Shown: positions 4,767 to 9,429 of the stretch, one piece after another
Numbering within the stretch: the stretch's first letter is position 1
Layout: every line of letters starts with the position of its first letter
NCBI GenBank assembly: GCA_965368975.1
Contig: CBDUPA010000005.1
Location: 1-64,000 of the forward strand
Length of the DNA stretch: 64,000 nucleotides
Direction: 5' to 3'
DNA from: an uncultured bacterium
Lineage (GTDB): Bacteria; Acidobacteriota; Thermoanaerobaculia; Multivoradales; JAHZIX01
Translations under genes and position numbers: made by a program
Notes under the pieces: generated by a model
What the model was told of the DNA's origin: nothing
The model's input: only the letters and a program-made list of their open reading frames with translations
Databases searched by the model: none

Positions 4767-5966
4767 ATGGCTGATACCCCCCGAAAGCCCACTGATACTT
4801 CGCAGCCCGCTGATACTTCGCAGCCAGGTCCTTCACGCCCGGAGCCACTGCGCCGCCGAGACCTCCTGCGCGGCGCCGCGATGGCGGGCGCGGGCGTTGT
4901 GGGAGCCGGCTTGCTCGGTGCCTGTGGTGGTGGTGGCAGCGCCGAAGGAGACGGCCCGGCCGTGCACACCAAGAAGCGTGTGCGTTGGCGTCTCACCTCC
5001 AGCTTCCCGCGCGGCCTGGACACCATCTACGGCTGCGCCGAGGTCATGGCCGAGCGCGTCAAGGCGATGACCGACGGCCTGTTCGACATTCGCTGCTATC
5101 CCGCGGGCGAACTGGTGCCTGGCCTGCAGGCGCTCGACGCCGTGCAGCAAGACACCGTGCAGATCGCCCACACCGCCGGCTACTACTTCACTGGCAAGAA
5201 CGCGGCGCTGGCCTTCGACACGACGATGCCCTTCGGCCTCACCTCGCGCCAGCAGACCGCCTGGCTCACCGAGGGCGGCGGCAAAGAGCTGATGCGCGAG
5301 CTGTGCGCCGACTTCAACGTCGTCAACTTCCTGGCCGGCAATACCGGGGCGCAGATGGGGGGGTGGTTCCGGCGCGAGATCGGCAGTGTCAGCGACATCC
5401 AGGGCTTGAAGATGCGCATCCCCGGCCTCGGGGGCCAGGTGATGGACCGCCTCGGCGCCACTGTCCAGGTGCTGGCCGGCGGTGACATCTACCCGGCGCT
5501 GGAGCGCGGTGCCATCGACGCCACCGAGTGGGTCGGTCCGTACGACGATGAGAAGCTGGGCTTTCACAAGGTGGCCAAGCTCTACTACTACCCGGGCTGG
5601 TGGGAGCCGGGCCCGTCGCTCAGCTACTACGTCAACCGCAAGGCGTGGGACGAACTGCCGTCGACGTACCAGGCGATGTTCGAAGCTGCCGCCGCGGAGT
5701 CCGCCCGCGTCATGCAGGCGCGCTACGACGCCCGCAACCCGGCGGCGCTGGCCCGCCTGCTCGAGCAAGGCGTCGAGCTGAAGCGCTTCTCGAATGACAT
5801 CCTGCAGGCGGCCGAGACCGCGGCCTTCGAGCTGATGGAAGAGGCTGCTGCCGCGGATGCCACCTACAACAAGGTGTTCACCGCCTGGAAGAAGGTGCGC
5901 CAGGAAGCGTTCAGTTGGTTCGGCACCGGTGAGCTGGCGTTCGCCGAGTACGCTTTCCGTCGCTGA
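4767..5966 (+). CDS. TRAP transporter substrate-binding protein (DctP/TakP type), Tat lipoprotein
   Basis: RRRDLLRG twin-arginine signal then LLGAC; GNTGAQMGGWF, GLKMRIPGLGG, ALERGAIDATEWVGPYDD, YYYPGWWEPG. Confidence 0.9.
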   Translation: MADTPRKPTDTSQPADTSQPGPSRPEPLRRRDLLRGAAMAGAGVVGAGLLGACGGGGSAEGDGPAVHTKKRVRWRLTSSFPRGLDTIYGCAEVMAERVKAMTDGLFDIRCYPAGELVPGLQALDAVQQDTVQIAHTAGYYFTGKNAALAFDTTMPFGLTSRQQTAWLTEGGGKELMRELCADFNVVNFLAGNTGAQMGGWFRREIGSVSDIQGLKMRIPGLGGQVMDRLGATVQVLAGGDIYPALERGAIDATEWVGPYDDEKLGFHKVAKLYYYPGWWEPGPSLSYYVNRKAWDELPSTYQAMFEAAAAESARVMQARYDARNPAALARLLEQGVELKRFSNDILQAAETAAFELMEEAAAADATYNKVFTAWKKVRQEAFSWFGTGELAFAEYAFRR

Positions 5967-6068
5967 CCCCGAGGTTCCGGGGCGGATCCAGCTCCTGCTG
6001 CCACCGCCGACGCTGTGCTAGGATTTTGCCATCGCCGAACCTGTATCGAGGAACGAGGCTGCATCGTC

Positions 6069-6266
6069 ATGACCCAACAAGCTCTAGCATCTGCACTCGG
6101 CTCCGCCCACGCGCGGGCCTCCGAGAGCGTCGAGACGGCTCGACCGACCCCCGAACGTGCTCCGTCGGAGGTACTCGCCAAGACGCTGCACAAGATCGCG
6201 GCGGACGCCGAGCGGCGCAGCCCTGTCTACCTGGCGGAAACGGTGGTCCCTGAAGGGGGCGAGTGA
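6069..6266 (+). CDS. Pup/UBact-like small protein modifier (65 aa, C-terminal GGE)
   Basis: MTQQALASA...YLAETVVPEGGE; low-complexity and Pup-sized; its stop overlaps the GTG start of a PafA-family gene (GTGA, 6263-6266). Confidence 0.8.
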   Translation: MTQQALASALGSAHARASESVETARPTPERAPSEVLAKTLHKIAADAERRSPVYLAETVVPEGGE

Positions 6267-7963
6267 CGGCACCGACCCCCTCTCGGAAGCCACCGCGGCT
6301 TCTGGGGCTCGAAACCGAATACGCGTTTCGCTTTTCGCCTGCGAGCCAGAATCCGGGCAACGATGTCCTCTACGACTATCTGCTCGACGCCATGCGCGAG
6401 CAGGTGGCCCTGAAGCCGGGTGACACCACCATCAAGCGCCAGGTGTTCGCCGAGAACGGCGGCGCGTTCTGCTACGAGCACCTACCTTACGCCACGCGCG
6501 GCGGCCTGTTCGAAGGAGCGACTCCGGAGTGTGCGGGCGTGGGGCAACTGGTGCTGTACCAGAAGGCTCAGGAACGGCTACTGGTGCGCTGCCTGCCGGG
6601 GGCTCAGGATGCCCTGCGACGCCACGGCTGCGAGGGCGAGCTGGGGTTGCTGCGCAACTGCCGGGACGCCGAGGGTCATGTCTTCGGGGCACAGGAGAAC
6701 TACCAGGCCGAGATCGCGCGCGGTCTCCCCCTGGGCCTCTACCGACTGTGCTTGGCACTCTTGCTGCCCCTGCTCCTGGTCCAGGCTGCGATCTACTGGT
6801 CGATCTCGGCCGTGCTCTTGGCAACCGTGGTGCCGGCGAGCATCGGCGCTGTCTTCGTCTCGTACCTGGCGCCCCGTTCCCGTTTCGGTCGCTGGATGCG
6901 ACGTTCGCTCGACGGGGAGACCCACGATCTGGAAGATCTCATCGGCCGCATCACGGCCTGGGTTGTCTTCTCATTGATGTGGCCGCTCCTGCTTCCTTGG
7001 GCACTGCTGTACCGAGCTTTTGCCTTCCGCCGCATTCGCCGGCAAGCCCTGGCCTTCCTGGCGTCGCGCCCCGTCGTGACCGGCACGGGCAGCGTCGACG
7101 AACACGGACGCTTCTCCTTGTCGGAGAAGGCAGCGGCGATCCGGCGTCTGATTCGACTCAGCGTTCGTCCCTCGGACCGCCCTATCTTCGACACCGGGAA
7201 TCTGCTCAAGCCGTTGATGCTGGCCATGGAGCTGAATGGGCGTCCACTGTTGCACTTGTTTCGGCGTCACCAGCGCCTGCAGCTGAGCTTGTCGGACGCG
7301 AACCGGGCCCAGGTCGCCGAGTTCCTGAAGATCGGAACCACCGCGCTGATCCTCGACCTGGTCGAGTCCGGCGCCTTGACCGACGCTCCGCGCCTGCGTC
7401 GACCGCTCGAAGCCTTGCGTTCGTGGAGTGCAGATCCAACGCTCGAAGCGACGGCACCGTTGCGCGATGGTCGTCAATTGAGCGCGCTCGACGTACAGCG
7501 ATGGTACCTCGAGCGCGCCCAGCAATGGCTGCGGGAGCAGGCGTCGCCGTCCTTGGAACAGCAGCAGGTCGTCCAACTCTGGGCCGAGGTGCTCGATGCC
7601 CTCGATCGCCGTGACTTCGGTGCTCTCGTAGGGCAGCTCGACTGGGTGACGAAGCGCTACCTGCTCGAGGAGTGTGGTGATCCCGATCGACCAGAGGTGC
7701 TCAAGACCATCGATCTGCGGTACCACGAACTGCGCGACGGCTACTTCCAGCGCCTGGAGAACATTGGCCAGGCTCCCCGGCTGGTGTCCGACGAGGCCAT
7801 CGACGAAGCGCTCGTGCACCCTCCGGCCACCACTCCCGCCTTCCTGCGTGGTCGCTTCATCCGTGAGAACGAAGAGACCCGCGTGCGCGTGCGGGTCTCG
7901 TGGGACTCGGCCCGGGTTGGCGGTCGGCTCAGTGGTAAGGTCATCCCATTCCAGCGCAACTGA
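6263..7963 (+). CDS. PafA/Dop-family (Pup ligase-like) carboxylate-amine ligase with a transmembrane insertion
   Basis: Ordered family motifs GLETEY, NGG, EGATPEC, GAQENY, RLQLSLSDAN, FLKIGTT, ALDVQRWY, LDWVTKR, IDLRYHEL, PPATT...RGRFI, VSW; hydrophobic insert at about 6722-7030. Confidence 0.88.
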   Translation: MTAPTPSRKPPRLLGLETEYAFRFSPASQNPGNDVLYDYLLDAMREQVALKPGDTTIKRQVFAENGGAFCYEHLPYATRGGLFEGATPECAGVGQLVLYQKAQERLLVRCLPGAQDALRRHGCEGELGLLRNCRDAEGHVFGAQENYQAEIARGLPLGLYRLCLALLLPLLLVQAAIYWSISAVLLATVVPASIGAVFVSYLAPRSRFGRWMRRSLDGETHDLEDLIGRITAWVVFSLMWPLLLPWALLYRAFAFRRIRRQALAFLASRPVVTGTGSVDEHGRFSLSEKAAAIRRLIRLSVRPSDRPIFDTGNLLKPLMLAMELNGRPLLHLFRRHQRLQLSLSDANRAQVAEFLKIGTTALILDLVESGALTDAPRLRRPLEALRSWSADPTLEATAPLRDGRQLSALDVQRWYLERAQQWLREQASPSLEQQQVVQLWAEVLDALDRRDFGALVGQLDWVTKRYLLEECGDPDRPEVLKTIDLRYHELRDGYFQRLENIGQAPRLVSDEAIDEALVHPPATTPAFLRGRFIRENEETRVRVRVSWDSARVGGRLSGKVIPFQRN

Positions 7964-7976
7964 CGAAGGAGCAAGC

Positions 7977-8621
7977 ATGTTTATCTTCGAACAGATACGG
8001 GTCGGTGGCGACCGCAACTTCAGCTACTTGGTGGGCGACAGCGACGCCGGCGAGGCGGTGATCGTGGATCCCAGCTACGATCCCGCGCGTGTTGTCGAGC
8101 GGGCGCGTGCCCAGCATCTCCGCGTGACTCACGTCATCAACACCCATGGTCACCAGGACCACACCAACGGCAATGACGAAGCCTGCCGGCTCACCGGGGC
8201 GCCCCTGGCAGCGTACAAGGGGGCCGCGTCGAATCCCGGACACCCACTCGACCACGGCGCCACGCTGCGTGTCGGCGGTTTGACGCTCGAGTTTCTCTAC
8301 ACGCCCGGGCACGCCGACGATCACCTGTGCATCCGGGTCGACGACGTGCTGATCACTGGTGATCTTCTCTTCGTCGGCAAGATCGGCGGCACGGCGACGC
8401 GTGCTGCGTCCGAGACGGAGTACCGCAGCTTGCACGACCACATCCTCACCCTGCCGGACCACCTCAGCGTCTGGCCCGGTCACGACTACGGCGCGCGTCC
8501 CGCCAGCACTCTGGCCTTGGAGAAGCGGACCAACCCGTTTCTGCTGTGCCCGGACCTGGAGTCCTTCCTCGACCTGAAGAAGAACTGGTCGACGTTCAAG
8601 GCGGAGAAGGGGCTGGTGTAG
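7977..8621 (+). CDS. MBL-fold metallo-hydrolase (glyoxalase II / persulfide dioxygenase-like)
   Basis: AAGGAG RBS; THGHQDH, TPGH, TGDLLF, WPGHDYG, EKRTNPFL motifs. Confidence 0.9.
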   Translation: MFIFEQIRVGGDRNFSYLVGDSDAGEAVIVDPSYDPARVVERARAQHLRVTHVINTHGHQDHTNGNDEACRLTGAPLAAYKGAASNPGHPLDHGATLRVGGLTLEFLYTPGHADDHLCIRVDDVLITGDLLFVGKIGGTATRAASETEYRSLHDHILTLPDHLSVWPGHDYGARPASTLALEKRTNPFLLCPDLESFLDLKKNWSTFKAEKGLV

Positions 8622-8643
8622 ATCCGGATGCGGCTTCGCCGCA

Positions 8644-8669
8644 GGGCAGGCACATGGGCCTGCCCCTAC
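8644..8669 (-). repeat. GTAG-type REP-like palindrome, with a second degenerate GTAGGGGC copy at 8692 on the + strand
   Basis: Minus strand reads GTAG-GGGCAGGC-CCATGT-GCCTGCCC (tetranucleotide plus near-perfect stem); located between convergent genes. Confidence 0.55.
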
Positions 8670-8754
8670 CCAGAATTCGCTGCCTTCTAATGTAGGGGCC
8701 TTCCGGGCCGGTTGGTGGCGCCCCTCTTCCATTCAATGGGAGAGGGTTCTTCAG

Positions 8755-9270
8755 CTATTTCTGCCCTGCAGCCGGCCGTGGCCGTGTCGGTATCGGACCG
8801 CGGCGCGGTGGATAGAGGGCCAGGTTCTGGTTCACTGCGTAGCCGGCGCTCACCAGGTCGCGCATCAGCGCGAACTTCCAAATGCCGATCTCGTCCATCG
8901 GCATGCACAGCACCTCGGAGAACGCCTCGGGCAGGTCCATGCCCTGCTCGGACAGTGCGGTGACGTAGCGGCGGCCGAACTTGCCGATGAAGTAACCGAG
9001 CTTGAACACCACATTCTGCCCGGGCCTCGGCTTGAGTTGGACGTCGCCCTTGGTGCCGATGCGGCCCAGGTCGTCCGGGGTCAACAAAACCACGGCGTAC
9101 GAATGCGACGCGTAGTCCTCAAAGCGCTCGACGACGGTCTGTGGCTCCTGGTCGTGCAGCGGGATCGGATTCAGGCCGATGGTTTGCAGAAAGCGCACCA
9201 CGGCCTGCGAAGCTTCCCCTGCTTGCGTATAGACGACGAAGACGTTTTTCTTCTTATGGACCAGGGCCAC
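8755..9270 (-). CDS. Stand-alone TIR-like nucleotide-binding domain protein (CAP12/Pycsar-effector TIR type)
   Basis: VFVV, GLNPIPLH, TVVERFE, YAVVLLTPDD, RPGQNVVFKLGYFIGKFGR motifs. Confidence 0.85.
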   Translation of the reverse strand: MALVHKKKNVFVVYTQAGEASQAVVRFLQTIGLNPIPLHDQEPQTVVERFEDYASHSYAVVLLTPDDLGRIGTKGDVQLKPRPGQNVVFKLGYFIGKFGRRYVTALSEQGMDLPEAFSEVLCMPMDEIGIWKFALMRDLVSAGYAVNQNLALYPPRRGPIPTRPRPAAGQK

Positions 9271-9429
9271 GATCTACCTTTCCCCTTCACCCTATCCTAA
9301 ACTGGCGCGGTCTTCAGCCCAACCCCTCTCATCCGCCTGCTGACGCGGGTCTCGGGTGGCTGACTTCCCGCGTGCGGGTTTCGCTACTTACGTGCGACGA
9401 CAACCGCGGATCGGGACGATGGGGACACA

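Follow-up and report, generated by a model that had tools for sequence, protein, structure and literature searches.

The stretch of DNA analysed here, called the window below, comprises 64,000 nucleotides (positions 1 to 64,000 of contig CBDUPA010000005.1, assembly GCA_965368975.1) from an uncultured bacterium of the Acidobacteriota. Two overlapping genes lie on its forward strand between positions 6069 and 7963. The upstream open reading frame (ORF; 6069..6266, +) begins with an ATG at 6069, closes with a TGA stop at 6264-6266 and encodes a protein of 65 amino acids, hereafter the tag, with the sequence MTQQ...VYLAETVVPEGGE and the C-terminus VVPEGGE. Written out over 6069-6266 (+), the same 65-residue tag sequence reads MTQQ...SPVYLAETVVPEGGE. 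The downstream gene (6263..7963, +) encodes a 566-residue protein of the PafA/Dop (Pup_ligase) family, hereafter the ligase, which was assigned with Pfam PF03136, an AlphaFold2 model and Foldseek. Its GTG start codon, at 6263-6265, overlaps the last codon and the stop of the tag gene. The last G of the tag's final codon is the first base of this GTG, and the four bases GTGA (6263-6266) are common to both genes. An initial annotation of the window had described a small ORF ending in PEGGE that overlaps a PafA/Dop-family gene by GTGA; the ORF calls and the PF03136 match bear this out. As argued below, the two genes likely form a proteasome-independent, pupylation-like tagging module.

Conservation of the tag ahead of the ligase

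To collect relatives, genomes were scanned at one per species, and ligase relatives were found at 203 loci. Of these, the best 80 were analysed, making 81 loci with that of the window. In 78 of the 80 related loci, a small ORF ending in G-[EQ] stops no more than a few dozen bases from the ligase. The exceptions are L025, in which the tag ORF precedes a longer ligase ORF at a greater distance, and L080, which is without upstream sequence. Overall, a tag-type ORF was found upstream of the ligase in 79 of the 79 related loci that have upstream sequence. Loss of the small ORF from ligase homologues had been set beforehand as grounds for abandoning the tagging interpretation, and this conservation leaves it standing. 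The arrangement observed is that of a Pup-type pair, with a small protein (50-90 residues) ending in G-[EQ] encoded beside a PafA-family gene.

The C-termini are uniform. All 74 tags listed end in GGE, the tag of L060 ends in SEGE, and a Gln ending was seen in none. An alignment of 60 tags (A2) gave the consensus LxxxxxxIxxDAxxxxxxYLxETxVPxGGE, preceded by a variable N-terminal half. In the tag of the window, the conserved C-terminal part corresponds to residues 34-65 (6168..6263, +) and is the predicted ligase-binding part. G63, G64 and E65 are invariant in this alignment, and D46, Y54, V60 and P61 are conserved in at least 90% of the tags.

Used alone in a word-index search, the tag sequence recovered only itself. 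The tag profile, compared with 1.84 billion representative proteins, gave 859 small-protein clusters at E<=0.001, 49 of them at E<=1e-10. Among the best 150 of the 859 matches, the proteins are 47-117 residues long, the match reaches the last residue and all end in GGE. We also counted the ORF ends in the six frames of this genome at which GGE is followed by a stop. There are 58, and only one carries the tail motif of the family. Judged from these counts, the GGE-ended small ORF ahead of the ligase is not a chance occurrence.

Fold, active site and hydrophobic insertion of the ligase

Residues 12-550 of the ligase match Pfam PF03136 over profile positions 1-440 of 441 (E 2.3e-85, 287.7 bits for a cut-off of 25), which confirms the family named for the larger gene in the initial annotation. 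An AlphaFold2 model was obtained with a predicted local distance difference test (pLDDT) score of 94.5 and a predicted template modelling (pTM) score of 0.93. The model has the two domains of the PafA/Dop fold, a glutamine-synthetase-like beta-sheet cradle and a C-terminal helical domain. The top structures in a Foldseek search were PafA 4BJR, Dop 4B0R/7OXY and 5LRT, with E values of 1e-27 to 1e-28 and TM-scores of 0.71-0.83 on the target; ligases of the YbdK type (YbdK/GCS2) ranked after PafA/Dop, at E about 1e-5. At the sequence level, 610 of 8000 candidates scored were homologues at E<=0.001. Among the 120 listed, the query's own entry aside, lengths are 514-638 residues and identities 46-60%, and some are named 'PafA2 family protein'.

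Column conservation was counted on an alignment of 86 ligase sequences (A3). The GhExE nucleotide-binding motif, family-defining for PafA/Dop according to the part of PMC7947786 that treats it, is present as G15-L-E17-T-E19 (6305..6319, +), with G15, E17, T18 and E19 conserved in at least 90% of the sequences. The invariant residues include E72, E84, E89, D135, E145, R269, R338 and Q340. The active site was compared with those of known enzymes by profile alignment to solved structures and through PMC8599861 and the table in PMC7947786, as far as these cover the residues concerned. Glu72 (codon 6476..6478, +), found in 86 of 86 sequences, is aligned to the catalytic Asp of PafA (D64 of Corynebacterium glutamicum). 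At this site 'yyE' pairs with 'yLD' of 4b0t_A, and a six-residue insertion then follows; the Asp-to-Glu change, as read from the alignment, is conservative. At the positions that tell PafA and Dop apart, the ligase has features of both: A86 and T87 are PafA-like and P88 is Dop-like. At the site of the Dop loop, the 37-residue insertion is absent from the profile alignment, in which the ligase has only about 9 residues more than PafA.

An insertion of about 100 residues separates the 'QENY' strand (ENY, 145-147) from the 'FLxSRPxxxGxG' strand (265-276) and ends by residue 262. It is conserved in 21 of 21 and in 86 of 86 aligned homologues. Column statistics on the 86 sequences define two hydrophobic blocks within it. 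In the first, residues 162-203 (6746..6871, +), most columns are without Lys, Arg, Asp or Glu, and position 200 has up to 15% Lys/Arg and 8% Asp/Glu; its flanks are Arg161 (97% Lys/Arg) and a Lys/Arg-rich loop. The second, residues 230-255 (6950..7027, +), contains P241 in 88% and P245 in 56% of the sequences, and its flanks show Lys/Arg shares of 58% at R229, 83% at R256, 97% at R259 and 80% at R260. Over the insertion, AlphaFold2 predicts helices at residues 154-202 (6722-6868) and 221-253. The 49-residue helix 154-202 may represent a hairpin, a tilted helix or an oligomer interface; Lys/Arg residues stand at both ends of the 42-residue block.

Because this hydrophobic insertion of about 100 residues is conserved, the ligase is probably membrane-anchored. 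Hydropathy and a positive-inside pattern suggest that the insertion enters the membrane and that the catalytic domain is cytoplasmic. Two hairpins with all ends cytoplasmic would fit both the Lys/Arg pattern and the four transmembrane (TM) segments counted by Iyer et al. in related ligases (see below).

The tag and the ligase were submitted together to complex prediction. The score was 0.86, as compared to 0.00 for the best of three controls. In the calibration of this score, 58 of 80 solved complexes and 2 of 110 mismatched pairs attained the mark; with the custom alignments used here, these counts apply only approximately. The runs agreed in at least 78% of contacts, with a partner pLDDT of at least 66. 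In the predicted complex, tag residues 31-65 make the contacts, lying against ligase helices 467-503, and the tag tail would reach the active-site cradle at ligase residues 19, 21-27, 72-82, 130-144, 303, 306, 310 and 342. Residues 72-74 of the ligase are thus among those modelled in contact with the tail. Complexes of PafA with Pup and of Dop with Pup have solved structures, and for this reason the positive score may reflect likeness to these templates. In the model, the Pup-dissimilar tag fits the same groove as Pup.

Proteasome partners, distribution and neighbourhood

Canonical loci encode Dop, ARC and the proteasome next to the tag and the ligase, and the initial annotation had noted that none of these genes lies in the window. 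The genome (G000; 7.13 Mb, 59 contigs, 99.3% complete) was searched for prcA, prcB, arc and dop, a check proposed with that annotation. It contains a single PF03136 gene, the ligase of the window. Its sole Proteasome-family match is hslV, which is situated between an xerC-like gene and hslU and was rejected as a 20S subunit. None of its proteins reached the cut-off of the ARC/Mpa model (504.75 bits); the best match, at 197.8 bits, belongs to a Cdc48-like double-AAA protein. The Pup model gave no match at cut-off. A single 18-bit match on contig C13 was rejected, as it falls inside a larger protein (...FVQPGGD...) and not at a C-terminus. Hence the absence of Dop, ARC and 20S genes extends from the window to the whole of this nearly complete genome, in which only hslVU was found. 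The same models did recognise a canonical locus of the same phylum, used as a positive control (ARC 675.3 bits, PrcB 212.8, PrcA 190.2). In addition, each of the five other large family-carrying genomes (5/5) has one PF03136 gene and no 20S beta subunit or ARC above cut-off. A match to BamA in the genome (498.7 bits, above cut-off) agrees with the diderm host supposed in the initial annotation, and the host is a diderm acidobacterium.

The Cdc48-like double-AAA ATPase (802 residues; contig C15:87717-90122, +) occurs at E<=1e-60 in only two of 41 genomes, G000 and G033. It was considered as a reader of the tag and rejected, since G033 has it without the ligase, while the ligase is present in 7 of the 41 genomes.

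By the titles of their entries, the best 80 of the 203 relatives include Acidobacteriota (Vicinamibacteria, Thermoanaerobaculia, 'Marinacidobacterales'), Myxococcota (Enhygromyxa, Paraliomyxa, Nannocystaceae, Haliangiales), Planctomycetota (Pirellulaceae, Gemmatales, 'Ca. Uabimicrobium'), Verrucomicrobiales and Leptospirales. Binning errors may explain a few entries with other taxon titles. Cultivable carriers of the family include Paraliomyxa miuraensis and 'Ca. Uabimicrobium amorphum'. An insertion-bearing ligase is present in 6 of the 40 closest genomes. In an even sample of the phylum, PF03136 was found in 15 of 401 genomes; outside this genome, the matches are 1.15-1.38 kb long, a length that leaves no room for the insertion.

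Six same-phylum loci (L099-L104) were fetched for comparison. Each has two paralogues, with tags ending in FKQEGGE, FKQKGGQ or NRQEGGQ. In L099, L100 and L103 (genomes G051, G085 and G050, all diderm), the order looks canonical, ARC - Dop - tag - PrcB - PrcA - PafA-like, and the tags end in ...FVDSFKQEGGE or ...FKQKGGQ; the gene families were checked by score for L099 and in part for L100. In L101, L102 and L104 (G242, G120 and G321), an ARC-like ATPase, scoring 301.9 bits and below cut-off in L101, is accompanied by a pair of divergent PF03136 paralogues, and the tag ends in ...NRQEGGQ or ...TRQRGGQ. L101 is preceded by a 378-residue protein with a weak match (E 2.7e-6) to the anti-phage model '6A-MBL cap2_3'.

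A quick maximum-likelihood tree was computed with IQ-TREE from 54 rows, namely every second row of A3 (43 of 86) and 11 same-phylum two-paralogue sequences. The 43 insertion-bearing ligases form one side of a branch with a support of 100 in the Shimodaira-Hasegawa-like approximate likelihood ratio test (SH-aLRT), apart from Dop, from PafA-like sequences and from the second paralogue pair. Placing the ligase in a PafA/Dop phylogeny, as had been proposed, therefore puts it outside both groups, and the tree presents the insertion-bearing family as a clade separate from the PafA-like and Dop sequences compared. This separation agrees with Hecht et al. 2020 (PMC7947786), where, in the part that concerns them, single-copy planctomycete homologues served as outgroup to PafA and Dop.

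Clustering of the ORFs of the 81 loci yielded no third conserved gene. The widest neighbour cluster, ligase and antisense ORFs aside, covers 14 of 81 loci and consists of lineage-specific synteny or common kinases, so the idea of a conserved third gene was rejected. In four loci (L074, L078, L086, L093), a protein of 181-188 residues with 5-6 predicted TM segments is encoded on the same strand, 92-135 bases past the ligase. These are only 4 of the 81 loci, and all are planctomycete by title (Pirellulaceae/Planctomycetaceae, 'Planctomycetota bacterium'). The protein is probably the 'membrane protein' neighbour reported by Iyer et al. for Rhodopirellula.

In the window itself, the upstream neighbour of the pair is a DctP-type binding protein (Pfam). 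On the downstream side, a gene for a metallo-beta-lactamase (MBL)-fold hydrolase (7977-8621, +) begins 14 bases past the ligase stop, with a GAAGGAG ribosome-binding site ahead of it. Because of this short gap and this ribosome-binding site, it is probably co-transcribed with the ligase in this window. Neither the DctP-type nor the MBL-fold neighbour recurs beside the ligase in the other 80 loci. A promoter and terminator scan of 5700-9400 showed nothing over shuffled expectation. A link of the pair with defence systems was considered and rejected, PADLOC giving no match for the tag, the ligase or the MBL gene. Further on, a stand-alone TIR-domain protein of 171 residues is encoded at 8755-9270 (-). 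It matches Pfam CAP12-PCTIR_TIR (E 2.8e-20) and the PADLOC candidate defence family PDC-S35 (E 3.5e-41), the latter over profile positions 131-276 of 278 only, that is, the C-terminal half.

Proposed mechanism, alternatives and known systems

Building on the gene pair and its conservation, on the fold and insertion of the ligase, on the missing partners and on the modelled interface, we infer a scheme for the activity and membrane topology of the ligase, for the kind of acceptor and for what tagging brings about. The conserved C-terminal residues of the tag, about 30, would bind the helical domain at the C-terminus of the ligase, with the Gly-Gly-Glu end lying in the active-site cradle. Two hydrophobic hairpins after the 'ENY' strand would anchor the ligase to the inner membrane on its cytoplasmic side. 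If the reaction resembles that of PafA, the ligase would first phosphorylate the terminal Glu on its gamma-carboxylate at the expense of ATP, and the activated carboxylate would then be joined to an amine, most likely that of lysine side chains of membrane or membrane-proximal proteins. Since every tag ends in Glu, no deamidase would be needed. The output should not be proteasomal, as the genome has no proteasome, ARC or Dop and the loci have no conserved third gene; it would probably be regulatory, or consist in a hand-over to another membrane-associated machine. The stand-alone tagging system with a possibly non-proteasomal output put forward in the initial annotation is thus supported by the genome-wide absence of Dop, ARC and 20S genes, conjugation itself being presumed. 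Its novelty had been overrated, such pairs having been described in 2008, and the hydrophobic insertion of the ligase had been missed.

Several observations weigh against this scheme. The tag of the window matches no Pfam or NCBIfam model, and none of the 60 aligned tags (0/60) matches the Pup models PF05639 or TIGR03687 at E values up to 10. The tag profile recovered no Pup chain among solved structures, and hhalign against the six canonical same-phylum tags gave a probability of 4%, with an alignment still in register over the helix, the aromatic residue and the tail. Homology of the tag to Pup was rejected on these four comparisons, in line with the little likeness to actinobacterial Pup reported from the start. 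The scores of the ligase against the NCBIfam equivalog models are far below cut-off, at 199.5 bits for PafA (TIGR03686, cut-off 551.3) and 166.9 for Dop (TIGR03688, cut-off 492.3), and its role as a ligase rather than a hydrolase is argued from context. Three hallmark positions of the active site differ. Glu72 stands where PafA (D64 in C. glutamicum) and Dop (D94 in A. cellulolyticus) have the catalytic Asp. The invariant Gln340 stands at the position of Dop His241, R338-L-Q340 being aligned to R239-L-H241. The NTRDEP motif, which holds Dop Arg227, is DTGNLxK in the family, and a counterpart of this Arg is not evident by alignment. Because of these differences, a PafA-type mechanism is an extrapolation here. 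As for the membrane hairpins, AlphaFold2 makes the first hydrophobic block one unbroken, high-confidence helix of 49 residues, with no hairpin. No candidate for a reader or an eraser was found, as no neighbour is conserved and the Cdc48-like ATPase does not track the ligase. Finally, the literature searched, which covered few subscription journals, contained no experimental study of such membrane-anchored pairs.

Some of the same observations can be read otherwise. The terminal Glu might be joined to an amine membrane lipid, for instance phosphatidylethanolamine, so that the tag would be tethered as Atg8 is by lipidation. The insertion comes directly after the active-site strand, between ENY (145-147) and FLxSRPxxxGxG (265-276), so the catalytic cradle should lie close to the bilayer. 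Such a product would also suit a pair beside which no partner, reader or eraser gene is conserved, and an active site departing from PafA/Dop at three positions. In PMC7947786 and PMC8599861, however, within the parts that deal with characterised relatives, every such enzyme acts on protein lysines or on Pup itself; we hold a lipid acceptor to be unlikely. There is an equally slim chance that the pair represents an ancestral, single-enzyme form of pupylation, with an amine lipid or only lysines of integral membrane proteins as acceptor and with the same enzyme also removing the tag. If this were true, bacteria would possess a counterpart of Atg8-type membrane tagging. The superfamily also includes gamma-glutamyl-cysteine ligases, which join small amines, and in the fold search YbdK/GCS2 structures rank directly behind those of PafA/Dop. 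With conservation confined to the 30 C-terminal residues of the tag, these points would suit a small protein that is a substrate or precursor of the enzyme, its terminal Glu being amidated with a small amine or processed as in peptide natural-product pathways and its conserved residues acting as a recognition leader. This we regard as quite improbable, for the neighbourhood shows no conserved tailoring, export or immunity genes, the tag mirrors the Pup architecture (a helix, an aromatic residue and a GGE tail modelled along the Pup-binding groove), and the superfamily branches that make small peptides are, in the account of Iyer et al. as far as it treats them, without a Pup-like ORF nearby (PMC2588565).

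The direction of the reaction was also considered. The family profile scores slightly higher against Dop structures (246 bits) than against PafA (211), and position 88 is Pro as in Dop, as might be expected of a Dop-like hydrolase or a non-catalytic binder. On the other hand, the single sequence scores higher with the NCBIfam model of PafA than with that of Dop, and the family lies outside both groups in the tree. With one PF03136 gene in the genome there would be no ligase besides it, leaving a de-tagging enzyme nothing to act on, and with all tags ending in Glu there is nothing to deamidate. A hydrolase or binder is accordingly very unlikely. It is hardly credible that the pair can be explained by a canonical Pup-proteasome locus in another part of this genome. 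Such loci do occur in other genomes of the phylum, but this assembly holds one PF03136 gene, only hslV and no ARC at cut-off, and at 99.3% completeness only a gap could hide one. Tagging of proteins by a two-gene module thus stands as the interpretation we favour.

Pupylation is understood almost wholly from actinobacteria, where it feeds the proteasome. The present family would carry out the same chemistry with two genes, tied to the membrane, in at least five diderm lineages without a proteasome. It may also show the state of the enzyme before ligase and depupylase split, as it falls outside the PafA-like and Dop sequences compared and has an invariant Glu in place of the catalytic Asp. The window contributes a representative from the Acidobacteriota and allows the family to be clearly defined.

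The closest known systems are those of Plesiocystis pacifica and Rhodopirellula baltica. Iyer, Burroughs and Aravind 2008 (PMC2588565) described, in the part of the paper devoted to them, Pup and ligase genes of Plesiocystis and Rhodopirellula without linkage to proteasome genes, the ligases bearing an insertion of four TM segments right after core strand 4; the account is computational only. The pair studied here shares with them a small G[EQ]-ended ORF beside a single PafA-family gene, an insertion of predicted TM segments right after core strand 4 and the lack of linkage to proteasome genes, here in the window as well as the genome. Loci of Nannocystaceae and Pirellulaceae are among the relatives of its ligase, in keeping with the taxa of that paper. 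It differs in its acidobacterial host and in having DctP-type and MBL-fold neighbours instead of a linked membrane-protein gene, the only respect in which the pair departs from the 2008 description as given there. From this description and these taxa, the sequences appear to be of the same kind. The pair is therefore an acidobacterial member of the kind predicted computationally in 2008, not a new kind. What is added here is its spread over Acidobacteriota, Myxococcota, Planctomycetota, Verrucomicrobiales and Leptospirales, the separate clade, the invariant Glu and the lack of a conserved third gene.

With the actinobacterial Pup-PafA-Dop-Mpa/ARC-20S system, the pair shares the enzyme fold, the GhExE motif, most acidic active-site residues, a GGE-ended tag adjoining the enzyme gene and, in the model, an equivalent groove for the tag. 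In contrast, there is one enzyme rather than two and neither ARC nor 20S; the enzyme has the hydrophobic insertion of about 100 residues, Glu for Asp and Gln for His at catalytic positions and a clade of its own (SH-aLRT 100), and the tag is not recognised by Pup models. C. glutamicum, in the part of PMC8223512 that reports it, carries out pupylation without a 20S proteasome, using ARC and Dop. Tagging without 20S is the point in common, and it gives a precedent for a non-degradative output (PMC8223512). However, C. glutamicum keeps Dop, the ARC unfoldase and a soluble PafA, none of which is present here. UBact-type loci have a Pup-like tag in diderm (Gram-negative) bacteria, a feature shared by the pair, and the same-phylum loci L099-L104 are of this general kind. 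These carry ARC, Dop-like and PafA-like genes, with prcB and prcA in L099. They thus differ from the pair in having two paralogous enzymes, ARC or an ARC-like ATPase and, where tested (L099), proteasome genes, and the tree separates their enzymes from the ligase described here.

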